Below, piece by piece: positions 10,131 to 57,952 of a stretch of 64,000 bases of DNA (position 1 is the stretch's first letter; each line of letters opens with the position of its first letter). The notes beneath the pieces are model-generated. The model did no database searches. It was given only the letters and a program-made list of their open reading frames with translations, and was not told the DNA's origin. The position numbers and the translations under genes are program-made. This DNA comes from an uncultured delta proteobacterium (GTDB taxonomy: Bacteria > Myxococcota_A > Polyangia > Haliangiales > Haliangiaceae), in contig CAVYYE010000003.1 of NCBI GenBank assembly GCA_963772655.1, positions 2,801,341 through 2,865,340 on the forward strand, in the 5' to 3' direction.

Positions 10131-11528
<1,398 letters not shown>

Positions 11529-11637
11529 GGCAGGGTTGTCTTTCCAATGGGGCAGCAAATGCAAGCCCCTACGATTGGTTTGAGTGAGTTTCGTGGCAGG
11601 AACCGGCCGGCCGGTCCGCCCAGGGCCCGGGATCGGT

Positions 11638-15020: not shown

Positions 15021-16364
15021 CTAGGCCAACCGGATCGCGCCGGCCGCGAACAGCACCGCGATCGCGGCGAGCACGGCGAGCAGCGCGATCCACGGTCCCC
15101 ACGTGCGCAGGCGGTGTGGTCGGTTCTCGGGAGCCACCCGAGGCGGTGACCGCGGCAGTAGGGGCATCGACAACGGCGGCACCGTTCCGGAGGGCTTCGG
15201 CGTCGCGAACCGGATCGCCGGCTCGGTGAACGGACGACCGAAGGGCTCGCTGTGTTCGTCCGGGCGACGGACCGTGATGCGGCGTGCGTTCTCGTCGAGG
15301 TCGGCCGGATCACTGACCAGCTCGAGCATCCGCCGCACGTGCGAGAGACTCGGACGCTGCTTCGGGTCCTTGGCCAACATCTCGAGCACCAGGCGATCGA
15401 TCTCCTCGGGCACCTCGGGTACCAGCGACGAGGGCGCCGGCGGCTCCATCGTGAGGTGTGCCGTGATCATCTCGACCGCGTTCTTCGCGAGAAACGGTGG
15501 ACGCGCGGTCAGACACTCGAACGCGATCGCACCGAGCGAGTAGACGTCGGATGCGAACACGACCTCGGTGGGAGAGCTCGCCTGCTCGGGTGCGATGTAC
15601 ATCGGCGTCCCCAGCAACTGTCCGCGCCCGGTGAGCACCATCGCGCGCTTGTCGTTGGCGAGCTTGGCGACGCCGAAATCGAGCAGCTTCACGAGCGGCT
15701 CGTCGTGGGCGATGTCGGCGAGGAAGATGTTCTCGGGCTTGATGTCGCGGTGGATCACCCGCTTGTCGTGGGCGGCTTCGAGTGCGCGCGTGACGCTCTT
15801 CACCGTGCGCGCCATCTGGACGAGCGACATCCGTCCGCGGCGCAGGCGCTCGCGCAGCGTCTCGCCGACCAGCCACTCCATCGCGAAGTAGCGGCGGCCA
15901 TCGGGCATCTCGCCGAACGCGAAGATGTCGACGATGTTGGGGTGACCGATCTGGTTGACGATCCTCGCCTCGGTGATGAACCGCTCGATCGTGGTCGGGT
16001 CCTCGCAGAACTGATGCTTGAGCACCTTGATCGCGGCGCGCTTGCCGATCAGCGGATGGATCGCCGAGAACACCGTGCCCATCCCGCCCTCTCCGAGCTT
16101 GCCGAAGATCTCGAAGTCACCGAGCGTCGAGCCGCGCGAGAGCTCGTAGTCGGAGAGGTTGAGGACGTCGGTGTCGCGCGTGATCGCCGTGCGGAATTTC
16201 CCGGACGGAAGGGTGTCGGGCTCCTGCGTGACCGGTGTCAGCTGGTCGCTCGGCGGACCTTCATACGCCAGCGAGCTGTCAGGCGAGCCAGTGCCCTCGG
16301 GGTAGGGGGTGACCTCCGTTATTTGGTTGGAGATCGGCTTGGAGCCACGAGGTGAGTCCACCAT
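15021..16364 (-). CDS. Ser/Thr protein kinase with C-terminal transmembrane anchor
   Basis: GEGGMGTV, AIKVLK, HRDIKPEN, LLDFGVAK, APEQ. C-terminal hydrophobic WIALLAVLAAIAVLFAAGAI. Confidence 0.85.
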   Translation of the reverse strand: MVDSPRGSKPISNQITEVTPYPEGTGSPDSSLAYEGPPSDQLTPVTQEPDTLPSGKFRTAITRDTDVLNLSDYELSRGSTLGDFEIFGKLGEGGMGTVFSAIHPLIGKRAAIKVLKHQFCEDPTTIERFITEARIVNQIGHPNIVDIFAFGEMPDGRRYFAMEWLVGETLRERLRRGRMSLVQMARTVKSVTRALEAAHDKRVIHRDIKPENIFLADIAHDEPLVKLLDFGVAKLANDKRAMVLTGRGQLLGTPMYIAPEQASSPTEVVFASDVYSLGAIAFECLTARPPFLAKNAVEMITAHLTMEPPAPSSLVPEVPEEIDRLVLEMLAKDPKQRPSLSHVRRMLELVSDPADLDENARRITVRRPDEHSEPFGRPFTEPAIRFATPKPSGTVPPLSMPLLPRSPPRVAPENRPHRLRTWGPWIALLAVLAAIAVLFAAGAIRLA

Positions 16365-16412
16365 CGACCAGTATCGCATGCACCGGGTCCCGAGCGCCCC
16401 GGTTTCGGCCGG

Positions 16413-19208: not shown

Positions 19209-20360
19209 CTACTTCTTCGAGCGCCACATGATGATCAGGTGGTTCCGGAACTTGATGTCCGGATACCCGAACCGGAAGTTCAGCTTCCGATGCGGCTGCG
19301 CCTTGAACATCTTCGCCCACACCGGCGAGAACGGCGCACCGGGATCCATCTCCGAGCGCTCGAAGGTGCCGTAGGTCTCGTACTTGAAGCCCGCCGGCTT
19401 GCCGTACTTCGGCGATAGCCCGGTGGCATCGGACACCATCCAGTCGACGTCGTCGATGATGTACTGCCGCATGGTCTTGAAGTTGGTGAACGACAGCAGG
19501 AACGACGCCGCCTTGGTCATCGCCGCGACGTGACCCTTCTTGTGGAGGTGGGCGAGGATCGCGGGGTGCTTCTTCAGGTGGGCGTCCTCGAGGTTGGCGA
19601 CGATGTGGCGATAGACCTGCTCGTGCTTGCTGCCGAGCTTGCGGAACTTGATCTCGACGTTGGCGAGCGTCTGGTTGCGCTTGTTCTGGTTCCGGATCTT
19701 GTCGGCCTTGTCGAGGTCCTGGGCGGTGAGGTAGCGAATGCCGCCGTCGTCGGTGAGCTCGAAGTACTTCATCGAGGTCGGCTCGTAGCCATAGAGCCAC
19801 AGCGCGGACAGGCTGAAGATCAGCTGCGTCGGCAGCTTGGCGCCGCGCATGAAGTCCATCATGTCCTTGGTGTGGGAGTAGTTGCGCCGGTACAGGAGCT
19901 CCATGCCCTTGGCCGACAGCTGGAGCTGCCGCTTGACCTCGCGCGGCTTGAGCTTGGCGAGCGCGCGAGGATCGCCGGCGGGCTCGAGCGCGATCGTGGT
20001 GATCTCGTCGGCGTCGGGAAACACGGCGAGTGCCGATCCGAGGTCGCCACCGGCGAACGGGTAGACCACGGTCTTGGGCACGGTGTTCGGCACGTGGTCG
20101 TGGAAGAACGCCGTGGCGTGGGCCTGCCACGACGCCTTGTAGGCCGCCTGCATCTTGTGCATCGCCCTGCAGTGGGCGGCGATCGTGGCGGGCTTGACCG
20201 TGGTGGGCGTGCCGTCGGCACACACCCCGACGACCATCAGCTCCTTGGCCTCGTCGAGCAGCTGCGCCGGTCGATCGGCGACCGAGACCCGGTCGGCGCG
20301 CGCGGGCGCGGTGGCAGCGAGACAAAGCCCGGTAGCGAGAATAGGTAGCAGGCGGCGCAT
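19209..20360 (-). CDS. Secreted hypothetical protein, uncharacterised family (paralog A of 27443..28657)
   Basis: Signal MRRLLPILATGLCLAATAPARA. Shares VVYPFAGGDL, LPTQLIFxL, GSKHEQVYRH, MTKAASxLLS and FRFGYP blocks with the 27443 protein. Confidence 0.7.
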   Translation of the reverse strand: MRRLLPILATGLCLAATAPARADRVSVADRPAQLLDEAKELMVVGVCADGTPTTVKPATIAAHCRAMHKMQAAYKASWQAHATAFFHDHVPNTVPKTVVYPFAGGDLGSALAVFPDADEITTIALEPAGDPRALAKLKPREVKRQLQLSAKGMELLYRRNYSHTKDMMDFMRGAKLPTQLIFSLSALWLYGYEPTSMKYFELTDDGGIRYLTAQDLDKADKIRNQNKRNQTLANVEIKFRKLGSKHEQVYRHIVANLEDAHLKKHPAILAHLHKKGHVAAMTKAASFLLSFTNFKTMRQYIIDDVDWMVSDATGLSPKYGKPAGFKYETYGTFERSEMDPGAPFSPVWAKMFKAQPHRKLNFRFGYPDIKFRNHLIIMWRSKK

Positions 20361-20437
20361 GGGCGGGAATCTCCCACGAGTCGAACGCGTGGTCGACATC
20401 CGGCATTCAACCTCGCGGGTCGATTTTCGAGGTCGCC

Positions 20438-22255: not shown

Positions 22256-22363
22256 GGTCCTCCGAAAGACGTGCATCCCGAGGGCCAGTGCTGCGCAGGA
22301 ATTTTCGCGCACGACGTGCGTGACGATCGTGTCGCAGGTGTCTGGGTGGCCGCTCGCGAAGTC

Positions 22364-23337
22364 TTACGGCATCGGGTGGGCCTGGAAGAACGCCATCACC
22401 TGCTCGCCCCACGTGAAGCTGTTGGGAAGCACGCAGGGGATCGCGTACTGCGCGGCGTAGGGATCGGTCGTGCTGCCCGCGATGCAGTGTCCCTTGGCGC
22501 TCGCGAACGGGCCGTCGGACACGGTCTCGTACGAGTGCTCGAAGGTCTCGATCAGCTCGCCGTCGGGACCGGTCCATCGGTTGTGGGTGTAGGTGGCGTC
22601 GCCGTCGACGGGCGTCGGTCCGGTCGCGTTGTACTCGGCGATCGCGGCGTCGCGGATCGTCACCATGCTCTGAAACCCGACCGAGGCGTCGGTGCGGCCC
22701 ATCATGAACACGATCGGGATCGGGCGCGACGGCGTGCGACCGGTCTCGAAGCAGGTCTGCTCGCCGAAGTTGGTGCCGCGGCCCGCCCCGGCCGGCGCCG
22801 CCGACGCGAACAGGTCGGCGTGATCGCAGAGCAGGCGCCAGGTCACGAACCCGCCACGCGAGAACCCGGTGACGTGAATCCGCTTGACGTCGACGCGAAA
22901 CACGTCGCGGAACTGCCCCACGATGTCGACCAGCGTGGCGTCGTTGCTCGCGTGCCAGGTCGAGCCCTGAAAGCCGCCGCCGAACGGCGGACCGGTCGGA
23001 GCGACGACGACGTATCCGTTCTGCTCGCCGAGGTCGCGCATCTGGATGTGGCCGTCCATGAGGAGGCCGTTGCCGGTGTCGCCGTGAAGCACGAGGATCA
23101 GGCCGCAGCCCGGTGCCTCGCACACCGCCGGGATCCGCGCGTCGACCTGGAGGCCGCCGCAGCTGTACACGTGATCGCCCGCGCTGATGTCGTCGATGCA
23201 GCCGGCGGGCACCGGCGGATCGGCCGGAGCGTCGGCGGGCGGCGCATCGTCGCCGGTAGCGGGATCGCTGCTGCCACCACACGCCATCGCCCCCAGGATC
23301 GCAACGAGGATCGCGAGAGCCAGCCCGATTCGCACGG
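22364..23337 (-). CDS. Esterase / PHB-depolymerase-family lipoprotein (alpha/beta hydrolase)
   Basis: GTG start giving VRIGLALAILVAILGAMAC lipoprotein signal. ILVLHG, HVTGFSRGG (GxSxG). The rest of the listed 1052-aa ORF is read-through antisense to the 23417 gene. Confidence 0.7.
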
Positions 23338-23416
23338 ATCGATTGTAACCAACGCGGGGGCCGATCGGCGGCCGGATCGATCGAGCGCCCCGGGCGGTGT
23401 GCGTTAGGGTCCGCCC

Positions 23417-25468
23417 ATGCGTAGATCGCTGCTGACCGCCGTCGTCACCGCCGCTGCTGTCTGGGGATGTTCCTCGAGCCCGAAGAAGATCCCGCCGGGA
23501 CCACCGCAGCCACCGGTCGGTGATGGCTCGGCCACCGCCGACCACGACGTGCCGCCGGATACCGGGCACGTCGAGAAGCGCACGCTGACCGAGGACACGC
23601 CGAGCACCACCGTCACCGGCAACAAGTTCATCGCGCCGGCGGGATGGCGCATCTGGGTCGACGGTCCGGCGACCGTGCTCGAGCCTCCCGAGGGCGGCTC
23701 GATGATCGCGCTGGTCGATGTCCAGGCCAAGGATTCGGAGGCGGCGCTCGCGGCGGCGTGGGCGGCGATCGAGCACCCGCCGAAGTGGAAGGTGCTGAAC
23801 CACACCGAGACACCGGACGCCAACGGGTGGAGCCACAACACGGGCTACGCCTACGATGTGCCCCCCAACGCCAAGCGCGTGGTCGCCGCCCACACGGCAT
23901 TCGCCAACGGCACGTGGACCGTGGTCCTGATCGACCTGGCGCAGGCGATCGCCGAGAAGCGTGGCGGCCAGCTCGGCGTGCTGTTCGGGCGCTTGCTTCC
24001 CAAGGGTGAAGAGGTCGAGTCGTTCGCGGGCAAGCAGCCCCACCCACTCGACAAGGCGCGGATCGCGGAGCTGTCCAAGTGGATCGAGGGCGCGCAGAAG
24101 CTGATGGACGTCGAGGGCGTCGGCCTCGGCCTGATCGACAAGGGCAAGGTCGTGTTCGCAGGCGGGTTCGGTGTTCGCACGCTCGGCAAGCGCGCGAAGG
24201 TCGATGCCAACACGCGGTTCATCATCGCGTCGAACTCGAAGGCGCTCACCACGCTGATGCTCGCGAAGCTGGTCGACGAGAACAAGCTGACGTGGGACAC
24301 GCCGGCGACCAAGCTGTTGCCGGAGTTCAAGCTCGGCAACGCCGACACCACGAAGCAGGTGCTGGTGAAGCACCTGATCTGCGCGTGCACGGGGATGCCC
24401 CGCCAGGATCTCGAGTGGCTGCTCGAGTTCAAGAACCTGACGCCGAAGGGCGTGCTGACGGCGCTGGGCAACATGCAGCCGACCAGCAAGTTCGGCGAGC
24501 TGTTCCAGTACTCGAACGTGATGGCCGCGGCGGCCGGCTTCCTCGGCGGGCACGTCGCGTATCCCAAGCTCGAGCTCGGCAAGGCCTACGACAAGGCGAT
24601 GCAGACGCGCGTGTTCGGTCCGCTCGGCATGCGGTCGACCACGCTCGACTTCAAGAAGGCGCAGCGCGGTGACTACGCGATGCCGCACTCGTTCGATATC
24701 GATCTGAAGCCCGCGCTCGCGGTCCACGCACTCAATTACTCGGTGATCCCGGTGCGTCCGGCGGGTGGCGTGTGGAGCACGGTCAACGACATGCTCGAGT
24801 ACGTCCAGATGGAGCTCGCCGACGGCAAGCTCCCCAACGGCAAGCAGTACGTCTCGAAGGAGGCCCTGCTCGCGCGGCGTGCGCCGCAGGTCGCGGTGTC
24901 CGAGGACACCACCTACGGCATGGGCCTCATGGTCAACACCCGCCACGGCATCCAGGTCGTCAGCCACGGCGGCGATCTGATCGGCTACCACAGCGACATG
25001 ATCTGGCTGCCCGAGTTCGGCGTCGGTGCCGTGATCCTCACCAACAGCGATCGCGGCAGCACGATCCGCAGCCTGTTCAAGCGCAAGCTGCTCGAGGTGC
25101 TGTTCGACGGCAAGCCCGAGGCCGACGCCCGGCTCGCCGCCGCCGACAAGAACTTCCGCGAGACCTACAAGGTCCAGCGCAAGCTGATCGAGGTCCCGGC
25201 CGATGCCGCCGAGGTCGCCAAGCTCGCCGCGCGCTACACCAACCCGTCGCTCGGGGAGCTCGCGGTGATCCACAAGGGCAAGACCACGACGTTCGACTTC
25301 GGCGAGTGGAAGTCCGAGGTCGCATCGCGCAAGAACCCGGACGGCTCGGTGTCGTTCCTCACGATCGCCCCGGGGATCACCGGCCTGGAGCTCGTCGTCG
25401 GCACCGGCGACAAGAAGACGCTGGTGATGCGCGACGCGCAGCACGAGTACACGTTCACCGCGCGCTGA
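23417..25468 (+). CDS. Class C beta-lactamase-family serine hydrolase (peptidase S12-like) lipoprotein
   Basis: Lipobox AVWGC. IIASNSKALT (SxxK). YSN and HGG downstream motifs. 683 aa. Confidence 0.85.
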   Translation: MRRSLLTAVVTAAAVWGCSSSPKKIPPGPPQPPVGDGSATADHDVPPDTGHVEKRTLTEDTPSTTVTGNKFIAPAGWRIWVDGPATVLEPPEGGSMIALVDVQAKDSEAALAAAWAAIEHPPKWKVLNHTETPDANGWSHNTGYAYDVPPNAKRVVAAHTAFANGTWTVVLIDLAQAIAEKRGGQLGVLFGRLLPKGEEVESFAGKQPHPLDKARIAELSKWIEGAQKLMDVEGVGLGLIDKGKVVFAGGFGVRTLGKRAKVDANTRFIIASNSKALTTLMLAKLVDENKLTWDTPATKLLPEFKLGNADTTKQVLVKHLICACTGMPRQDLEWLLEFKNLTPKGVLTALGNMQPTSKFGELFQYSNVMAAAAGFLGGHVAYPKLELGKAYDKAMQTRVFGPLGMRSTTLDFKKAQRGDYAMPHSFDIDLKPALAVHALNYSVIPVRPAGGVWSTVNDMLEYVQMELADGKLPNGKQYVSKEALLARRAPQVAVSEDTTYGMGLMVNTRHGIQVVSHGGDLIGYHSDMIWLPEFGVGAVILTNSDRGSTIRSLFKRKLLEVLFDGKPEADARLAAADKNFRETYKVQRKLIEVPADAAEVAKLAARYTNPSLGELAVIHKGKTTTFDFGEWKSEVASRKNPDGSVSFLTIAPGITGLELVVGTGDKKTLVMRDAQHEYTFTAR

Positions 25469-25539
25469 GTCGCCCGCGCGCACGGATGCGCGGCGAGTGC
25501 CACCCGGATCGCCGAGGGACACGTGGCCTACTCGGAGTG

Positions 25540-26189: not shown

Positions 26190-27446
26190 CTATGGGGTGA
26201 CGCCGATCGCGCCGTCGATGTTCTCGAGTCCGCTGCCCATCGCGAGCGAGCCGACGTCCTCGACGGTGCCGTCGGCGTGAAACGCGAGCTGGCGCACCGA
26301 GACGTTCTCGGACACGAACACGCGACCCTGCAGGGTGCCGCGCTCGATCATCGCGAGGTCGCCGGGGAGCTGCGGCGATGCGCCGGTGTACGGGACCTCG
26401 CCGCGCACCTGCCAGGTGCCGCCGGCACCGTTGGCGTCGAGCACGAACAGCGCGTCGCCGAACGCGCTCGCGACGATCGCGACATCGCCGAACGGCGAGG
26501 CCACGATCGCTTCCGGATCCTCGACGTCGACCGAGCCGAGCGGCGTCATCGTGCCGCTGCCGGCGATCTTGACCGCCGCGACGCGGTTGTCGATGCCCGA
26601 GAACTGGCTGACGTCGCCGACCAGGAACGTGCCGCCGTCGAACGTCAGTGCGGTACCGCCGACGATCTGCATGTTGTCGGGGAACGCGTCGGCACCCGAC
26701 GTGCGGGTTGCCGCACCGTCGAGCGTGGCGAGGTGGACGTCGTCGCCGGCCGGCGAGTCGAGCAGACCCTTCGCCGCGACGATCGCGCCGCCGTCGGACG
26801 TGAACACCATCCCGCCCGGCAGGTCGGCCGCGGCGACGAGGCCCATGTCGGTCGGCGTACCGTCGCAGCCGATCGCGACCTCGTAGATGCCGCCGTCGTT
26901 GCCCAGCGTGTCGGGATCGATCACGTAGGCGCGGTCGCCGCGCGGATCGACGACCACGCGGTCGGCGTAGAACGATCCCTCGAGCACCGTGATCGGCGTC
27001 GGCGTGCCGTCGGCGTCGAGCCGGAACACGCCGAGCTTGCCGTCCTCGGTCGCGACCAGGCCGATCTCGCCGTCCGGGGTGAACGCGATCGTGCCGACCG
27101 CCGCGCGCCCGAGCGTGAACGTGCGCCCCGGTCGGGTCAGCTCGCCGGTCTGCGACAGGTCGAGGACCTCGAACGTATCGGCCTTGTTGCCGTCGGTGTC
27201 GTAGGGGTGCGCGACCACGACGTGACGCGCGCGATCCGCCGCCGCCGGCATCCGCGCGCACGCGGCCGGGCCGTCGTTGCCACCGTCAGGCGGCGGCATG
27301 TCGTCGGCGACCTCGGAGTGGCCACACGCCGCGCCGGCGAGCCCGATCGCTTCCAACGCGACCGCGATCGCGAGTCGCGACGTCGTTGTTGCCCGACTTC
27401 GCGTCCGCGGTCGACCTCCCGGCTGGGTGCCCGCTCGCGAAGTCAC
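26190..27446 (-). CDS. Lipoprotein with beta-propeller-like repeats, carrying conserved leader VTSRAGTQPGGRPR
   Basis: GTG start overlaps the stop of the 27443 gene (GTGA). Signal/lipobox LAIAVALEAIGLAGAAC. Repeated Gly/Asp-rich beta-strand blocks. The R-rich 26056..27261 ORF is an alternative frame of this gene. Confidence 0.65.
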   Translation of the reverse strand: MTSRAGTQPGGRPRTRSRATTTSRLAIAVALEAIGLAGAACGHSEVADDMPPPDGGNDGPAACARMPAAADRARHVVVAHPYDTDGNKADTFEVLDLSQTGELTRPGRTFTLGRAAVGTIAFTPDGEIGLVATEDGKLGVFRLDADGTPTPITVLEGSFYADRVVVDPRGDRAYVIDPDTLGNDGGIYEVAIGCDGTPTDMGLVAAADLPGGMVFTSDGGAIVAAKGLLDSPAGDDVHLATLDGAATRTSGADAFPDNMQIVGGTALTFDGGTFLVGDVSQFSGIDNRVAAVKIAGSGTMTPLGSVDVEDPEAIVASPFGDVAIVASAFGDALFVLDANGAGGTWQVRGEVPYTGASPQLPGDLAMIERGTLQGRVFVSENVSVRQLAFHADGTVEDVGSLAMGSGLENIDGAIGVTP

Positions 27447-28636
27447 CGCGAGGCCTTCCGGACCGGCTTCTTCTTCGTCACCGGCTTGGGGCCGCGCTTC
27501 ATGAACACCATGTGGCCGTTGCCCTCGCCGTTGGGGTAGCCGAACCGGAATGCGAGGTCGCGGTGCGGCTTGGACGCGAACAGCGCCTTCCACGTCCACC
27601 GCACCGAGCCATTGCCGGCGTTCATGTTCGACTTCTTCCAGTCGCCCCAGGTCTCGTACTCGAACCCGGCGGGCTCGCCGATCGACGGCGGGATCCCGGT
27701 GGTGTCGCTGACCATCCAGTCGACATGCTGGATCAGGTAGTTCCGGAACCTGCTGAAGTTGCCGTACGAGAGCAGGTAGCTCGCGGCCTTCGTCATCCCG
27801 GCGACATGGCCCTTCGCGGCGAGGTACTGGAGCGGTGCGTTCCACTTCGCGAGGTGCTCGTTGTCGAGGTTGGCCATCAGGTGGCGATACACCTGCTCGT
27901 GCTTGCTGCCGTGCTTGCGAAACCGCAGCTCGACGTTGCCGAACACGCGATTGCGCGCGGCGGCGTTGCGGATGCGCTCGCCGCGCTTGATGTCGCGCTC
28001 GGTCAGGTAGACGACGCGCCCGCGGTTGTCGAGGCGGAAGTACCGCATGCCGAGCAGCTCGTAGCCGTGGATGTCGAGCGCGGCCAGGTTGAAGATCAGC
28101 TGCGTCGGTAGCTGGCCGCCACGCATCGCGCCGATCATGTCCATCGTCTTCGAGTAGCTGGCGCGGTATAGCTCGCCGAGCTCGTAGTCGACGACGCCGA
28201 GCGCCTTCTCGAGTTGCTTGTCGTCGAGCCGTTTGAGCGACCGCGGGTCCCCCGCTGGCTCGAGCGACAGCGTGGTGATGTCGTCGGCGTCGGGGAACAC
28301 CGTCAGTGCGGTCACCAGGTCGCCGCCCGCGAACGGATACACCACCGTGGTCGGTAGCCCCGAGGGCATGTGGGCGCGGAAGAACTTGGTCGCCGGGGCG
28401 AGCCACGCCTTGCGGTAGTCCGCCTGCGCCGCGTGCACCTTCTCGCAGTGCGCGGAGATGATCTCCGAGCGGTGATCCTTGCCGGTCGGTGCCTTGCCGG
28501 CGCACGCGCCGATCGAGAGCAGCTGGTTCGCCTCGTCGAGCATCTCGACCGGCGCCGCCTTGTCGGCAAACGCGCGGGACGACCACGCGATGGATGTGAG
28601 GAGCACCAGCGAGACGGCGAACAGCAGGGAACGCAT
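27443..28636 (-). CDS. Secreted hypothetical protein, uncharacterised family (paralog B of 19209..20360)
   Basis: Signal MRSLLFAVSLVLLTSIAWSSRAFA. Conserved blocks shared with paralog A. Basic C-terminal tail. Confidence 0.75.
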   Translation of the reverse strand: MRSLLFAVSLVLLTSIAWSSRAFADKAAPVEMLDEANQLLSIGACAGKAPTGKDHRSEIISAHCEKVHAAQADYRKAWLAPATKFFRAHMPSGLPTTVVYPFAGGDLVTALTVFPDADDITTLSLEPAGDPRSLKRLDDKQLEKALGVVDYELGELYRASYSKTMDMIGAMRGGQLPTQLIFNLAALDIHGYELLGMRYFRLDNRGRVVYLTERDIKRGERIRNAAARNRVFGNVELRFRKHGSKHEQVYRHLMANLDNEHLAKWNAPLQYLAAKGHVAGMTKAASYLLSYGNFSRFRNYLIQHVDWMVSDTTGIPPSIGEPAGFEYETWGDWKKSNMNAGNGSVRWTWKALFASKPHRDLAFRFGYPNGEGNGHMVFMKRGPKPVTKKKPVRKASR

Positions 28637-28768
28637 CGGCCGAGGACTCTGCCGCAATTGCGACCGCCGCGCGAGCCCCGATGTTCGTGGCTGGCATCAC
28701 GGTCGCAAGTGCGGTTGGCCTCGGCAAAAGTCCTGGACCGAACCTCCGGCCCCACCTACGCTCCGCCC

Positions 28769-38869: not shown

Positions 38870-41800
38870 GTGGCTGGCGGGAACCGCACCCATCGTGGTC
38901 GTTCACCGTTCGGTGAGGGGGATCACTGGCAAGACTCGGGGCCGACGCCGGGCAAGAAGTCGCTGACCCAGGAGCTCGGCAAGGCGACCCGCACCTCGGC
39001 GACCGTTCCGGGCAAGCGTGCGATGACCGACGTGTTCCCGACCCACCGTGCGAACCACATGGCGAGCCCCGACAAGGTTCCGGCATCGGTCGCGGGTGTA
39101 CTCGCGAACGCGAAGGGAAAGCCACTCGCGAACTCGCGTGCGTGGTCGAAGCGCATGGGGTCGAACGTCGATCACGCCCGCGTGGTGACCGGAGAGGGTG
39201 CCCCGGATGCGGCGCGGGAGCTGGGTGCACGCGCGTTCACGATCGGCAACCGCGTGTTCTTCGGAGCCGGTCACGATCCGTCGACCGACGGTGGCAGCCT
39301 GCTCGAGCACGAGCTCACGCACGTCGTACAGCAGAAGCACGCGAAGCCACCCACGGACTTCGAGAGTGCGTCGATCGTTCCGTACGGCGATGGCCGCGAG
39401 AGTGAAGCGCGCGACAAGGGAAAACCGACCGCCGGATCGAGCGAGCAGGCGATCGCGCGCGACGCCGAGAAGGATCTCGACGCCACGCCGTATCGCACGC
39501 GGTTCGCCAAGGAGATCGGCGATGGCGTCGCCGCCTACCTCGGCACGCACGAACTGCCCACGGGATCGCGGTTCGTGACGTTTCCGATCCCGATGTCGGC
39601 GGCCAACGCGATCGTGGGTGCGACTGGGAAGGAGCTGAACGAGAAGCTCGATTCGTGGTTGACGCGCGGCAAGGTCGAGCAGCTGATCGACAAGGCGCGT
39701 CCGATGGGCCGCGAGCGAGTGACCGACGGCGACAAGACCTGGGTCGCCGACAAGATGGGCGAGGGTCCGGCGCGGTGGTTTCCCGATATCGCCACCGAGA
39801 TCGCAGCTGCGTTGTTCGCGTTGCTCCGACAGTCCCTCGATCGCGTCGTGCCGCGCTATCAGAGTGCTGCGGTCGCGCTCGGCGTCGAGGCCGACGACAA
39901 GGAGCAAGCGAACGTCATCGATCCTCCAAAACCGACCGTCGCGGACATCGTGCCCAGCCACCCGATCGATGTCGCGACGATCGCCGCGCTCGTAAACGTC
40001 GCTCGATTCGACTACCAGACCTATCGCGCGACCTACCCGAACGAGAAGGGACAGCGCGGCAAGCTGCGCCCGATCACGTCCGTGAAGTGGCACGCACCCA
40101 ACAACGGCACCTACTTCGCGCGCGTCGAACCGGCGGACGCCACCATCGAGGAGGTCGCGAACGAGCTGTTCGGTACGCCGACGAAGTCGTCGCAGATCAA
40201 GATCTCGGCTGCACCGCTGTTCGGTCTCGACTGGGCCGGCGACGTCAAGCCGGTGCATCTCGAGTCGCTGAAGAAGCTGGGAGCCGATCCGAACAAGCTC
40301 GGCGATGCCGGCAAGGAAGCGACCACCGGCGAGCTCGCCGACGAGATCGCGAAGCTGCAGGGAAGCAAGGTCACCGCCGGAAAGGCCGCGACCAAGGACG
40401 CCGTGCTGCGAACGATCGACGAATCGCTCGCGATCGTTCCGACGATCGAGAAGGCCGGCGCGGCGTTCGGCATGGGCAAGAACCCGATGGTCGGGTCGCT
40501 GGCCCCACTGACCAAACGCCTGGAAGACCGGCGCGCGAAGATCGCGGTCGCGAGCGAAGAAGACGCCCTGAAGTGGGCGGGGCAGACCGAAGCGCAACAG
40601 CAGGTACTGACGTCGATCTCGTTCGACTTCGATCGCGAGTCCAAGCGGCTTGCCGACCTCACCAAGATGGTGACCGATCCGCAGCTCAAGCTCGGCGGCT
40701 TCAACCTACCCCCGCACGTGCGCGAGGCGATGGTCCATGTCGCGATGGGTTACGCGGATACGGCGCTCCTGTCCGACGCACCGCAGACGGCGCAACACAA
40801 GCTGGCGGCGGTCGAGGACGAGGCAGGGGCCCTGCCGATCACGTTTCTCGAGGGCACGCTCGCATCGATCCAGCGCTCGCTCGACGACGCGCGCGATGCG
40901 AAGCACGGCAAGTCGGAACACGCGTCGTACGGCGTGACGGGGATGGCCGGCCGCGAGCAGAAGCTCAAGGAACGGCTCGCCGCCGTCCGGGCGATGATCA
41001 AGACCGATCCGGAGGGCGCCACCAAGGAGCTCAAGGAGGTCTCGAAGCTGATCACCGATCTCCAGCTCGAGACCGAGATGGTCGCGAACATGGACCAGAT
41101 CGACGCTGCCTGGCAGGCGCTCGACGACGGCATCAGCTTCTGGTGGACGAGCGTCTTCACGCAGCTCCACGCCAAGGATCTCAAGGCCAAGGGCGACGAG
41201 CTCCACGCGCGGTGGAAGCAGATCTTCAAGGCGTGGAAGACCAACGATCCCGAGAAACAGAAACAGGCCAAGGCCGATCTCGAGGGTCTGCGCAAGGATC
41301 CGGCCCTGGGCAAGTGGCTCGGCGAGGTCCAGTCGGTACTCAAGGACGCGCGCATCGAGCGGCTGATCGGCGAGTTCGTCGCGATCATCGCGATCACGAT
41401 CGTCACCGCGGGTGTCGGGGATCTGGTCGCGGCAGGCGCGGCGGGCTGGGAGCTCTCCGCCGGATCGACGGCACTCCTCGCGGGTGGCGCTGAGGCCGCG
41501 ACCTTCACGATGCTGTCGCAGATCTTCCTCGACAGCGATCATAGCTTCGGCCACATCGCCTACGAGTTCGCGAGCAACTGGGCGCTGTTCGGTGTGTTGC
41601 GGCGATTCCAGGCGTTCGCGGAGGTCGCCAAGCTATCCAAGGTCGAAGCGGTCGGCGGAAACGTGCTGCTCCTCGCCGCGACCACCTACGCGAAGGCGGA
41701 CCTCGACAAGTACATCAAGGAAGGTCGCCACCTCAACGCCGACGAGGTCAAGCAGGTCGCGCTGCAGGGCATGGCGATGGCGATCGCGATGCACGCGATC

Positions 41801-55245: not shown

Positions 55246-57952
55246 CTACATGCGATCGAGCTCGGCCTGCGCACGGGCCCGCGTCGCGGCGCGCGGATGG
55301 TCTCGCGCCGTCTCCTCGAGGTACTCCCTCGCGGGCGGCCCGATGTCCACGCGCAGGAACGTCGCGAGATCCTCGCGATAGTCGCCCGACGCGATGAACG
55401 CGCGGAGCACCGTCTTGATCAGCTCGGGATCGGCCCGGTAGGTCGGGTCGATCGCGAGCACCTCGCGGAACTCCTCGAGGCCGACGGTCCACCAGTCTCG
55501 ATCGAAGTCGATCTTGCCGGCGAGGTAGGCGAGCCGCGCGTCCTTCGGGAACACCTTGCGTGCGGCGCGCACCCGTTCGAGCGCGGCGTCGGTGTTGCCG
55601 GCCGCGAGGAGCTCGGTGATGCGCGCGACCTGATCGTCCACGGCACCACCGCCGTGCGAGGTGTCGCCGCCCGCGACGCCGGCCGACCCGGTTGGCTTCT
55701 CGGGGGTGGGCGTCGACGACTTCGAACCGCGCGTCGCGGTCGCGATGATCGCGATCACGACGATCAACCCGACCGCGACCGCCACGCCGATCTTGAAGTG
55801 GTGGGGCCTGATCACGCGGGGAGGACGCGGACGCAGCTTGCCCTCGGGCTCGGCGACGGCAGAGGCATCGGCCGCATCGAGCGGGGAGGGACCGGTCGGT
55901 GGCGCGCCCCGGAACGCCACCGTTCCCTTCGCGTCGGTGATCGGATTGCCGTCGGCATCGAGCAGGGCTGCCGGGCTCGCCGCCGCCGCCGCCCGCCGCC
56001 GCCGCCGGAGGACGCATCGCGCCGGGTGCCACGCCCGTGCTCGTCGTATCCGACTGCGAGGTCGGAGGGCTCGACTTCGGCGAGCTTGCCGTCGCCACGC
56101 CGCCCGTGACCGCGAGCCCCGCGCTCGTCGCGACGGTCTTCGATCCGGGGGTCGCGTTCGCATCCGCGTTCGCTTCCCCGTTCCCTTCCCCGTTCCCTTC
56201 CGCGTTCGTATCGACGGTGGCGCCGCGATCCGCGTCCGGTACCGTCGCACTCGCATCGACGCCCGCAGCGTTGGACGCTGCCTCCGTGCTTGCAGGATCC
56301 GACGCATCGCGCGCGATCGGTGCGGAGACCTCCCCCGAGCGCTCGAGGATCGGGTTCGCCGCTTCGGGGATCGCCAGCGACATGTCGAAGCCGGGTGCGA
56401 TCCCAGCCGGCCCGGCCGGCCCGGCGGCCGGCGGGCTCGGGATCGCGGTCGATAGATCGAAGCCCGTGGGCAGCCCGCGGCGCGGCTCGCTGGCGGTCGC
56501 GGCGGGCATCACCGGCGCGCTCGGAGTCGCAGCTACCGGTGCACTCGGACTCGCGGCACTCGGCGTGCTCGGCGCACTCGCACTCGGCGCACTCGGACTC
56601 GCGGCACTCGGCGCACTCGGCACCGGCGCACTCGGCGCACTCGGCGCACTCGGCGCACTCGGCACCGGCGCACTGGGCGCACTCGGCACCGGCGCACTCG
56701 GACTCGCGGCACTCGGCTTGGTCGGAGCTCCACCGGCGGGCGTCGGGACGCGCCGGCCATAGGGCGCGGGGATCGCGCGCCCGGTACGGGGCGCGACGAT
56801 CGGCGTACTCGCGACGGGACCCGACGGCGGGATCGGTGCACTCGTGATCGGCGCGGCCGGTGCTGTCACCGGCGCGGACGGCGCGTCGCCCCAACCATCG
56901 TCGACCGACGGCGTGCTCGGGGCGGCGGCTGGAGCCGGCGTGGTCGGCGCGGCAGGCGCCTGCGAGGGAGCGGGTTCCGGCCCGTCGGGGAGTGGATACA
57001 TCGACGAGCGCGCGTCGGCGGGTACCGCCCACCCGGTCTCCGTGGCGGCCACGCTCGGCGGCACCACCGGTGTGTCGATCGGTCGTGATTGGCGCTTGGG
57101 AACGATGTCGAGCGCCGACCCGAACTCGACGGCGGTCGCGTAGCGATCGTCGGCCTGCTTCGCGAGCGCCTTCGCGACGATCGCCTCGAGCGGTCCGAAG
57201 TCGATGCCGGGCTGTCGATCGCGGAGCGCGGGTGGCGCCTGCTTGAGATGCATCGAGCACACCTCGACCGGATCGTCGGCCTCCGAGATGAACGGCTTGG
57301 TGCCGGTCAACAGCTCGAACAGCAGCACGCCGCACGCGTACAGATCGGCGCGATGATCGATCGGCGTGCCGCGGATCTGCTCGGGCGCCATGTACGACGG
57401 CGTACCGACGACGATGCCGGTCGTGAGGTTCGACGTCGAGGTCTCGAAGCGCGCGAGGCCGAAGTCGAGGATCTTGACGTGATCGCCGAGGCCGGCCTTC
57501 TGCGACAGCACGATGTTCGCCGGCTTGATGTCGCGATGGATGATGCCGTGCTCGTGGGCGTGCGCGAGTCCGGACAGCACCTGGCGAACGATCTCGACCG
57601 CGCGCGGCAGGGGAACCGGGCCGCGCGCGATCAGGTCGCGCAGGCTCTCGCCGCTGACGAAGTCCATCACCACGAACGGCTTCTCGTCGTGGATGCCGAC
57701 GTCGACCACGGCCGCGCAGTGCGGGTGCTCGAGCTTGGCCATCGCGATCGCCTCGATCTCGAAGCGCTGGCGCGCGGACATCTCGGACGGAATCTCGTCG
57801 TGGAGCAGCTTGATCGCGACGATGCGTCCGAGCTTGAGCCGCTCGGCGCGATACACGACCCCCATCGCGCCCTCGCCGATCGTTTCGATCACGCGGTAGC
57901 GGCCGTCGAGCACCACCCCGATGAGGTCGCCCGGATCCACGCCATCCACCAT
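55246..57952 (-). CDS. Ser/Thr protein kinase, Pro/Ala/Ser-rich repeats, TM, TPR-like C-terminal domain; frame changes inside a (GGC)n tract near 55975-56010
   Basis: Kinase motifs GEGAMGVV, AIKLL, HRDIKPAN, ILDFGLA, APEQ, then APSAPSAP repeats in one frame. TM (IGVAVAVGLIVVIAIIATA) and helical C-terminus are in the frame of ORF 55246..56307. Confidence 0.7.

Follow-up and report, generated by a model that had tools for sequence, protein, structure and literature searches.

A candidate MIRU-like 60-bp repeat at stop/start junctions in an uncultured Haliangiales/Kofleriaceae-like myxobacterium

Two gene junctions that carry a 60-nt unit

The stretch of DNA that was analyzed (the window, 64 kb) contains two loci at which the same short sequence lies between a minus-strand gene and the minus-strand gene that follows it. 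The features of these loci, designated A and B, and of a partial copy elsewhere in the window are listed below.

27443..28657, minus strand: upstream gene of locus A, encoding a 404-aa secreted protein with no Pfam match
27443..27446, minus strand: GTGA of locus A, shared by the stop (TGA) of the 404-aa ORF and the start (GTG) that unit A provides
27387..27446, minus strand: unit A, 60 nt, 20 codons, GTGACTTCGCGAGCGGGCACCCAGCCGGGAGGTCGACCGCGGACGCGAAGTCGGGCAACA, read as V/M-TSRAGTQPGGRPRTRSRAT
27408..27440, minus strand: invariant 33-nt center of unit A, unit positions 7–39
27436..27444, minus strand: 5' terminal inverted-repeat arm of unit A, GACTTCGCG, which pairs with CGCGAAGTC
27395..27403, minus strand: 3' terminal inverted-repeat arm of unit A, CGCGAAGTC
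27375..27386, minus strand: 12-nt partial second unit or direct repeat of locus A, ACGACGTCGCGA = T-T-S-R, identical to unit positions 1–12 at 10/12
26190..27446, minus strand: downstream gene of locus A, encoding lipoprotein A (lipobox LAGAAC; 539 homologues at E ≤ 0.001)
45892..46986, minus strand: upstream gene of locus B, encoding an OmpA-family protein (PF00691)
45892..45895, minus strand: ATGA of locus B, where the ATGA of unit B1 overlaps the stop of the OmpA-family gene
45836..45895, minus strand: unit B1, 60 nt, ATGACGTCGCGAGCGGGCACCCAGCCGGGAGGTCGACCGAGGAAGCGACGTCGAGCAACC = MTSRAGTQPGGRPRKRRRAT
45776..45835, minus strand: unit B2, 60 nt, MTSRAGTQPGGRPRQRRRAT, head-to-tail with B1
45773..45775, minus strand: ATC codon of locus B at the ancestral start position, where relatives have GTG/ATG-AAC-CGN (V/M-N-R) overlapping the OmpA stop
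44747..45895, minus strand: downstream gene of locus B, encoding lipoprotein B (Stig1-like, Cys-rich, lipobox LAGC)
22342..22364, minus strand: partial copy C, AGACTTCGCGAGCGGCCACCCAG, 22/23 identical to unit A positions 2–24, beginning at the last base of a TAA

The initial annotation placed the element exactly at stop/start overlaps, and both junctions bear this out: GTGA joins the 404-aa ORF to the lipoprotein A ORF, and ATGA joins the OmpA-family ORF to the lipoprotein B ORF. The full repeat is a 60-nt unit of 20 codons that reads along the minus (mRNA) strand. The length of the unit is divisible by three, its sequence contains no stop in the downstream gene's frame, and its 5' end brings an RTGA of its own. 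Locus A consists of one unit and the 12-nt partial repeat, and locus B of two tandem units. The insertion site is the 4-nt RTGA overlap at locus B or the position right behind RTGA at locus A, in both cases within a co-directional gene pair. The proteins that flank loci A and B have nothing in common but a 24-aa leader; paralogy of the flanking genes between the two loci was considered and rejected, with none found. A paralogue of the 404-aa protein of locus A is present at about 19209–20400(-).

The 32-mer GGTCGACCTCCCGGCTGGGTGCCCGCTCGCGA occurs in three exact copies in the window (27409–27440, 45798–45829, and 45858–45889), and its expected number by chance is 0 (0 matches in 100 dinucleotide shuffles). 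The core was originally described as ~37 nt of 100% identity; the identity is exact for the 32-mer and does not hold for 27409..27446, where 36/37 positions agree and base 27441 is A in copy A and C in the B copies. Over the whole unit the identities are 53/60 for A/B1, 51/60 for A/B2, and 56/60 for B1/B2, with the copies differing at 4–9 of 60 positions. Copy A together with the 12-nt partial second unit is 90% identical to B1 over 71 nt. The flanks of the two loci are as divergent as first reported, being unrelated both upstream (9/40) and downstream (14/40). The 33-nt center of the unit is invariant, and the 9 variable columns all lie outside it, clustered at the ends (P ~0.009, placement-corrected).

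The original start positions of the two lipoprotein genes now read ATC (locus B) and ACG (locus A), which leaves the RTG of the unit as the only usable start. The ACG codon, 27386..27384(-), stands at the probable original start of lipoprotein A (M-T-S-R-LAIAVALEAIGLAGAAC). Ahead of either hydrophobic core there is no further in-frame ATG, GTG, or TTG besides the starts that the unit supplies. The public annotation (P0001, 362 aa) starts lipoprotein B at the ATG of unit B2.

Partial copy C has 1 mismatch in 23 positions, and 0.01 such matches are expected by chance. The TAA that it abuts is the stop of an esterase-like lipoprotein gene, 22364–23335(-). The copy covers the 5' arm and the beginning of the core; the remainder of the unit is absent or decayed. 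The suggestion that copies always precede lipoprotein genes fails at this site, where the copy lies ~109 nt upstream of a pyruvate-kinase-like gene and adjoins a stop codon, not a start. Every copy, partial copy C included, is co-oriented with the minus-strand genes, and an inverted partner of the unit was not detected within the 64-kb window (4 copies, one orientation). The full copies at two loci and the one fragment are all inside 24 kb of one genome.

Empty junctions in relatives and searches beyond the window

The closest relatives of the flanking genes are found in Kofleriaceae/Haliangiales MAGs. The OmpA-like/lipoprotein pair is kept in 59/61 related MAG loci, and the unit was not found by nhmmer in these 61 loci. 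The junction in 22 of these related MAGs is a bare GTGA/ATGA overlap, behind which a short signal peptide begins with V/M-(N/K/T)-R and continues through a hydrophobic stretch to the lipobox Cys. Junction B of the window reads GGAGAATGGCC-ATGA-[116 nt]-CACG-ATCA-ACCGG, a 120-nt in-frame insertion with an imperfect tetranucleotide repeat on both sides. The tetranucleotide "target duplications" are imperfect at both loci, ATGA/ATCA at B and GTGA/ACGA at A. The repeated stretch at locus A is 12 nt, not 4, a length that a partial tandem unit or homology-driven copying would explain no less well than transposition. Three related loci (L003, L004, and L030) contain an extra ~190–290 nt at junction B, of sequence unrelated to the unit.

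The leader is missing from the 40 closest lipoprotein A homologues that were read, whose N termini are short signal peptides such as MTRIAAGWILAFTAC and MTRLALVLAPLIALVAAC; the lipoprotein A homologues begin MTRL/MTRI. The leader is likewise in none of the 19 lipoprotein B homologues with an N terminus that was read. Very recent duplication was among the origins first put forward, and with 22 relatives showing an empty junction a recent duplication or insertion is the best-supported part of that earlier reading.

Searches for the core were extended to public collections. A 24-mer core had 0 matches in 185,579 GTDB representative genomes, a set that does not include the source genome. A 20-mer core had a single match in the JGI metagenomes (L002), a 24-nt identity in an unrelated coding region (VSVDLPAGWIAKDDP) that lacks both arms and is probably fortuitous. 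The core had 0 matches in viral contigs; an 18-mer had 4, which is about the chance level by a rough calculation, and the two that were read are low-GC phage contigs. With the GTDB scan empty and the lone metagenome match probably fortuitous, no repeat family is evident beyond the window. Protein searches for the leader (140 candidates with a six-frame query, none at E ≤ 10; 4 with a profile, none scored) are uninformative because the index misses the leader: the leader profile scores P0001 at E = 7.5e-9 locally, yet the protein word index does not retrieve it. No transposase or other mobilizing gene was detected among the 16 window proteins scanned. An independent Logan assembly (run ERR11594398) recovers the OmpA stop together with the unit's initial 31 nt before its contig breaks off inside the repeat.

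Codon usage, palindromes, and folding of the unit

The leader M/V-TSRAGTQPGGRPR was quoted correctly in the initial annotation, and the likeness extends to 21/24 residues. The codons of the unit's translated frame are atypical. GC3 is 0.55–0.70 compared to 0.90 ± 0.09, CAI is 0.32–0.45 compared to 0.72 ± 0.15, and the codon usage falls in the bottom 1–5% of 20-codon windows in the genes of the window. Identity spans all third positions of 13 codons, and the differences that change an amino acid pile up in the tail. The proposal of nucleotide-level conservation, as opposed to selection on the peptide, is upheld by the leader being on no homologue read, by the atypical codons, and by an invariant 33-nt center with variable ends. 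Selenocysteine insertion or read-through after the UGA was rejected, as the frame of the upstream gene meets another UGA after no more than 19 codons, which are poorly adapted. An internal Shine-Dalgarno function was also rejected, as the GGGAGG of the unit is 28 nt from the next ATG, which is too far.

The unit has imperfect terminal inverted repeats of 8–9 bp, of the type GACGTCGCG; those of unit B are GACGTCGC/GCGACGTC. GC-rich internal palindromes, GGTCGACC and GACGTC, can be read off the sequence. Pairing between the terminal inverted repeats holds in 93% of cells. Among the three sequences a single compensatory change occurs, from G-C in the B copies to U-A in A (T in the 5' arm, A in its partner); with three sequences this pair is not significant, and 182/500 shuffles do as well. 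Folded one at a time as RNA, the units have z-scores of −2.0, −1.8, and −0.6; folded as DNA, they range from −0.2 to −1.6, and none of these values is exceptional. Focused Rfam 15 scans gave only noise (E 0.7–3.3), and membership of a curated RNA family was rejected with no covariance-model match at gathering score in the window. A regulatory RNA structure had been offered as one possible function, and neither the z-scores nor the compensatory pair nor the Rfam result supports it.

Comparison with known repeats and origin of the unit

The properties of the unit were compared with descriptions of known short repeats. MIRUs (mycobacterial interspersed repetitive units) are described in PMC3184786 as 40–100 bp elements in polycistronic operons, with ORFs whose ends overlap the adjacent genes, with empty and filled sites that have tetranucleotide direct repeats, and with inverted repeats that are imperfect at the termini and GC-rich in the interior. 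PMC12548453, citing Supply et al. 1997, has them insert at start codons with −4 nt coupling. MIRUs have 40–50 copies per genome. The unit is similar in most of these respects. Its 60 nt fall within the size range, and it is single or tandem. It sits between co-directional operon genes and is always oriented alike, and the B pair is syntenic in 59/61 loci. The RTGA at its 5' end overlaps the upstream stop by 4 nt, its terminal inverted repeats are imperfect, and its internal palindromes are GC-rich. Empty RTGA junctions exist in the 22 relatives, and the flanking tetranucleotide repeats are here imperfect. The unit differs at its 3' end, which has no in-frame stop; it runs on into the downstream gene, whose start codon it supplants, whereas a MIRU is a separate mini-ORF coupled to the downstream start. 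The loci with the unit or a piece of it number 3 in 64 kb, compared to tens per genome for MIRUs. The host belongs to Myxococcota, not Mycobacterium, and the likeness is drawn from published MIRU descriptions. Because the relatives of the flanking genes are Kofleriaceae/Haliangiales MAGs, the unit is considered a MIRU analogue and not a member of the mycobacterial family with its classes I–III.

RPEs (Rickettsia palindromic elements) are palindromic selfish repeats that lie in-frame inside coding sequence and are translated at tolerant positions (Ogata et al. 2000, summarized in PMC10969869); their size is ~100–150 bp, and they are known from many kinds of gene, in Rickettsia only. The unit shares with them the in-frame fusion and the predicted translation with the host protein. 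Size (60 nt), position (a gene junction), and host (a myxobacterium) set it apart from the RPEs, and the tolerant position is here the cleavable n-region of a signal peptide. REP/BIME and MITE elements are short GC-rich imperfect palindromes with terminal inverted repeats that lie just 3' of stops between co-transcribed genes; REPs are extragenic and untranslated, they often stand in both orientations or as inverted pairs, and a genome holds hundreds of them, whereas a parent IS and defined target-site duplications are characteristic of MITEs (PMC3184786, PMC10969869). The unit resembles these in being a short GC-rich palindrome with terminal inverted repeats behind a stop codon. It is no REP/BIME, being a predicted N-terminal extension at two loci and having 4 copies in one orientation with no inverted partner in the window. 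It also has no known parent IS or RAYT gene. An integron attC site (59-base element) has the core sites R'' (RYYYAAC) and R' (GTTRRRY) at its ends and lies 3' of mobile gene cassettes. The ends of the unit, ATGACGTCG... and ...GAGCAACC, have no such core sites, and the genes on either side of it form a pair with conserved synteny instead of being cassettes. On the best reading of these comparisons, the unit would be a MIRU-like junction repeat that is fused in frame as RPEs are.

The explanation we prefer, with middling confidence, is that the element is a lineage-specific ~60-bp interspersed repeat of MIRU type in an uncultured Haliangiales/Kofleriaceae-like myxobacterium, known from one 64-kb window, and that it is selfish DNA which the host tolerates rather than a dedicated leader or regulator. 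Termination-reinitiation coupling would be kept, because the upstream stop still overlaps the start with a Shine-Dalgarno-like GGAG/GGAAGG ahead of it. Translation of the unit would lengthen the positively charged n-region of the lipoprotein signal peptide by 20 or 40 residues rich in Arg, Gly, and Pro. Signal peptidase II would cut off this unit-encoded region, so the mature proteins would be unchanged and the insertion nearly neutral. The unit may have spread between loci through an insertion resembling transposition or through recombination at the short homology RTGA(CGTCGCGA), and the tandem pair at B could come from re-insertion or slippage. The invariant 33-nt center may be the part recognized by whatever copies the element.

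A one-off, non-mobile event is a rival account, and we regard it as a minor but serious possibility. A 60-nt stretch from the 5' end of one lipoprotein gene (probably A, where a native M-T-S-R-L... is possible) would have been copied once by ectopic gene conversion or template switching at the RTGA micro-homology, followed by slippage, with no family and no function. The full loci are only two, 18 kb apart and on the same strand, GTDB representatives have no match, and metagenomes and viral contigs have essentially none. The 12-nt RTGACGTCGCGA repeat at A also resembles a native start for gene A, given that the homologues open with MTRL/MTRI. The partial copy at 22342–22364 does not fit this account: it extends from the "12-nt native" part into the remainder of the unit, and it does so at another stop codon, with 0.01 such matches expected. 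The center is also significantly better conserved than the ends, a pattern that a single recent copying would not give. An assembly artefact or chimeric join is a very improbable origin. The source is a MAG (2.89-Mb contig), and tandem duplications can be assembly errors, but the same sequence is present at two distant loci with the reading frames intact, the Logan assembly matches junction B up to the repeat, and assembly collapse or duplication would not produce copies that differ at 4–9/60 positions.

Two functional explanations were weighed against the same data. A cis-acting mRNA element, unlikely in our judgment, would use a hairpin with the overlapping stop/start at its base to tune termination-reinitiation, that is, the coupling of the downstream lipoprotein gene. 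The G of RTG and the GA of TGA are in the first pairs of the 8–9 bp stem, with the shared T forming a U-G pair beneath, and the compensatory change between A and B and the core that is invariant at synonymous positions point the same way. Against this, the folding is no better than that of shuffled sequence, the covariation among three sequences is matched by 182/500 shuffles, and there is no Rfam family, even with the threshold relaxed to E ≤ 10. The unit is also missing from the orthologous junctions, which have the bare RTGA in the 22 relatives read, and the 22.3-kb partial copy does not coincide with a start codon. A functional leader peptide, for example a sorting tag common to a set of lipoproteins or a targeting signal of extended or Tat-like form, would be held by protein-level selection, and we think this more doubtful still. 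The unit is in frame at both loci, before a lipobox signal peptide, and its Arg-rich sequence (RRRAT) is compatible with an n-region. The twin-arginine consensus is S/T-R-R-x-F-L-K, and the leader has no clear match to it. Selection on a peptide is at odds with its absence from every lipoprotein A or B homologue with an N terminus that was read, with codon usage among the worst 1–5%, and with identity at all third positions of 13 codons while amino-acid changes are in the tail; 2 tandem copies at B compared to 1 at A are unlike a fixed-length signal.

A MIRU-type selfish repeat remains our preferred reading. A bolder and rather speculative form of it is an undescribed Myxococcota family of mobile cassettes that target RTGA overlaps, bring their own start codon, and use the n-region as a safe harbor, with the 33-nt core as the site for a putative recombinase. 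Units of this kind mislead start-codon annotation, as in the public record that opens lipoprotein B at the second unit, inflate predicted signal peptides, and break short-read assemblies; they could also be VNTR-type strain markers for uncultured myxobacteria. If the present copies are all there are, the finding is a minor local duplication. If more copies confirm it, repeats that colonize translationally coupled junctions would not be peculiar to mycobacteria. The MIRU strategy of keeping the −4 overlap and leaving operon expression undisturbed would then have arisen independently in a distant phylum, and hiding in a signal peptide that is cut off would be a second route to neutrality.

Repeat units at gene junctions

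The initial annotation described an element repeated at gene junctions, and the repeat proved genuine. Exact copies of the 32-mer GGTCGACCTCCCGGCTGGGTGCCCGCTCGCGA lie at 27409-27440, 45798-45829 and 45858-45889 (+ strand), and the string has 0 matches in dinucleotide shuffles of the window. The 20-mer from its centre returned the same three sites in a window search, even with 3 mismatches. The identity quoted over 37 nt is near-complete at 36/37 rather than 100%; base 27441 differs. The repeat unit is 60 nt long, and the features of its two loci are as follows.

Repeat units and adjoining genes at loci A and B
27446..27387, minus strand: unit A, 60 nt
27386..27375, minus strand: 12-nt partial second unit ACGACGTCGCGA continuing copy A
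45895..45836, minus strand: unit B1, 60 nt
45835..45776, minus strand: unit B2, 60 nt
27443-28657, minus strand: 404-aa ORF with signal peptide, ending in the TGA of GTGA
26190-27446, minus strand: lipoprotein A ORF, opened by the GTG of GTGA
45892-46986, minus strand: OmpA-family gene (PF00691), ending in the TGA of ATGA

Pairwise identities are 53/60 (A/B1), 51/60 (A/B2) and 56/60 (B1/B2). Copy A continues into the 12-nt partial unit, which brings its alignment with B1 to 71 nt at 90% identity (repeat family D7). Beyond the unit borders the loci are unrelated, agreeing at 9/40 upstream and 14/40 downstream positions. The nine variable columns (1, 6, 40, 43, 44, 49, 54, 57 and 60) all lie outside an invariant 33-nt centre (P ~0.009, corrected for all block placements).

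The claimed stop/start overlap is present at the unit, as GTGA at locus A and ATGA at locus B. Lipoprotein A begins V-TSRAGTQPGGRPRTRSRAT-TTSR-LAIAVALEAIGLAGAAC..., a lipoprotein signal peptide, and the ATG at locus B opens MTSRAGTQPGGRPRKRRRAT-MTSRAGTQPGGRPRQRRRAT-INRSIGSVVVVGLIAILAGC..., a Stig1-like lipoprotein. On reading the sequence, we found no alternative in-frame ATG, GTG or TTG ahead of the hydrophobic core at A or B; thus the unit provides the sole usable start at both. Host-derived Shine-Dalgarno-like strings lie 8-9 nt upstream of the starts (GGAAGG at A, GGAG at B). Lipoproteins A and B have only a 24-residue leader in common (21/24), and the upstream proteins of the two loci are unrelated to each other. 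The 404-aa ORF has no Pfam match. Its paralogue 8 kb away (19209-20400, minus strand; 78% nucleotide identity over 114 nt, families D12 and D13) comes after a pyruvate-kinase-like gene, and its 3' end is without a repeat unit.

One more weak match in the window was obtained using nhmmer with the three-copy profile. This partial copy (22364..22342, minus strand) is a 23-mer, TGACKTCGCGAGCGGSCACCCAG versus AGACTTCGCGAGCGGCCACCCAG, with 1 mismatch; 0.01 matches are expected with up to 3 mismatches allowed, and no other window stretch equals its alignment score. Its first base is the final base of the TAA codon that closes an esterase-like lipoprotein gene (22364-23335, minus strand), and the SD-preceded ATG (22255) of the pyruvate-kinase-like gene follows ~109 nt downstream. 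Every copy in the window has the same orientation as the genes and adjoins a stop codon. Only two of the window copies lie ahead of lipoprotein genes. The mechanically listed 1052-aa ORF here (22364-25522, minus strand) is a chimera with a coding GC pattern only in 22364-23335; the remainder is a shadow ORF antisense to a beta-lactamase-family gene (23417-25468, plus strand). The window, at 68% GC, has many such long shadow ORFs.

The window holds other repeated sequence. Three tandem 99-nt repeats (10591-10887, 69-77% identical) lie in an OmpA/beta-barrel family gene (10131-11564, minus strand), and a dense array of short CGGCGCACTCGG-like repeats with spacings of 9, 15 and 24 nt occupies 56513-56733. 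Three paralogous Ser/Thr protein kinase genes (15021-16379 and 47552-49897, both minus strand, and ~57300-57910) have 65-80% identical segments in common (families D9, D16 and D17). The window also encodes a 1550-aa protein with an eCIS core (DUF4157-type) domain (38870-43522, plus strand) and a class II ribonucleotide reductase (50348-53305, minus strand).

Filled and empty junctions

A lipoprotein B homologue profile identified 61 loci in GTDB representative genomes, all in MAGs of Kofleriaceae, Haliangiales, Polyangiales or Sandaracinaceae. Identity reaches no more than 49%, which indicates as the source an uncultured Haliangiales/Kofleriaceae-like myxobacterium without a close relative in the collections. 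The OmpA-like and lipoprotein gene pair is kept in 59/61 loci. At the 22 junctions read base by base, the overlap is GTGA or ATGA with GGAG(G) 8-10 nt upstream, and the lipoprotein starts V/M-(N/K/T)-R, followed directly by the hydrophobic core and lipobox Cys. The window junction at locus B reads ...GGAGAATGGCC-ATGA-[116 nt]-CACG-ATCA-ACCGGTCGATCGG, and its ATC-AAC-CGG occupies the position of the relatives' GTG-AAC-CGN. By sequence comparison, locus B is the relatives' junction with an in-frame insertion of 120 nt (two units).

The unit was found in 0/61 related loci, and the leader is absent from 19/19 lipoprotein B homologues with N-termini read and from the 40/40 best lipoprotein A homologues read. 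The latter start with short lipoprotein signal peptides (MTRIAAGWILAFTAC, MTRLALVLAPLIALVAAC and similar), so the native lipoprotein A N-terminus was probably M-T-S-R-LAIAV..., and its original start codon is probably now ACG.

The three closest relatives carry a different extra segment of ~190-290 nt at the same OmpA-like/lipoprotein junction (contigs L003:5734-6060, L004:1042-1330 and L030:5658-5950). It begins at the GTGA overlap and contains internal repeats GCGCGACTGGCGC..ATGATC that read RDWRxAMIEMI; the frame is open in L003, and in L004 a stop breaks it. In this lineage, the junction seems to have gained sequence repeatedly.

The 24-mer core has 0 matches in 185,579 representative genomes, and the viral contigs gave nothing above chance. 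Two empty protein-level leader searches carry no weight because, in a local control, the word index missed the known carrier too. The 20-mer core matched one JGI metagenome contig (L002) over 24 nt only, inside an unrelated coding region. The common 24 nt, CACCCAGCCGGGAGGTCGACCGAG (L002:403-426), codes on the opposite strand for VSVDLPAGW, and the antisense frame of the unit (SVDLPAGC) likewise has coding-like GC3. The likeness may be fortuitous, or it may hint at a gene-fragment origin of the core.

Codon usage, folding and alternative explanations

GC3 of the units in the translated frame is 0.55-0.70 versus 0.90 +/- 0.09 in confident window genes. Their CAI-like index is 0.32-0.45 versus 0.72 +/- 0.15, which places them in the lowest 1-5% of 20-codon windows and is due to several CGA, GGA, GGT, AGG, CGT and GCA codons. 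Thirteen consecutive codons are identical between A and B at all three positions, and the amino-acid differences fall in the tail. The codon usage, the codon identity and the homologues without the leader argue against selection on the peptide; a functional leader peptide is poorly supported and highly improbable. The initial reading of a recent event at the nucleotide level was right, given the junction insertion, leader-less homologues and poor codon adaptation. The functions it suggested for the element are unsupported. Imperfect terminal inverted repeats are present in every unit; those of B read GACGTCGC...GCGACGTC and those of A GACTTCGCG...CGCGAAGTC, with a G-to-T change in one A arm matched by C-to-A in the other. 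The stem starts within the RTGA overlap, with the shared T in a U-G pair, and its first Watson-Crick pairs include the start-codon G and the stop GA. This single compensatory pair among three sequences is equalled in 182/500 shuffles, single units fold with z-scores of -2.0, -1.8 and -0.6 (RNA) and of -0.2 to -1.6 (DNA), and Rfam gave no match at gathering thresholds and noise only at E<=10. Support for a selected fold is weak, and a hairpin for translational control is a poorly supported, improbable explanation. A DNA-binding protein and an RNA fold would be equally compatible with the internal palindromes (GGTCGACC, GACGTC).

A single local copy-and-slip event would account for the copies as a local duplication and is possible but doubtful; it is disfavoured both by the partial copy at a third locus and by the unequal conservation along the unit. 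An assembly artefact is very unlikely. An independent Logan assembly (contig L001, run ERR11594398) agrees with the window through the OmpA stop and 31 nt into the unit, and it ends within the repeat; short-read assemblies typically end at repeats.

Relation to interspersed repeats

Where PMC3184786 summarizes Supply et al. (1997), mycobacterial interspersed repetitive units (MIRUs) are 40-100 bp units, single or tandem, within polycistronic operons. They carry ORFs whose ends overlap adjacent genes, show empty and filled sites with tetranucleotide direct repeats, and have imperfect terminal inverted repeats at their bounds and GC-rich inverted repeats inside. MIRUs 'insert themselves at start codons', and the -4 nt coupling means that expression is hardly disturbed (PMC12548453). 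The features of the window unit closely match this description, but the unit's own frame lacks a stop. The unit forms an N-terminal extension of the downstream protein, and in this it resembles Rickettsia palindromic elements (RPEs), which extend proteins inside genes (PMC10969869). Insertion would be tolerated with the extension placed in the basic n-region of the signal peptide, with that region removed by signal peptidase II, and with the RTGA overlap, hence coupling, kept. Any mechanism of mobility is one that we infer. On these comparisons, the best description of this myxobacterial unit is a MIRU-like junction repeat.

The public annotation of lipoprotein B (P0001, 362 aa) begins at the second-unit ATG (window 45835). 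The protein more likely starts at the first-unit ATG, the one in overlap with the OmpA stop. Units like these make start-codon calls ambiguous.
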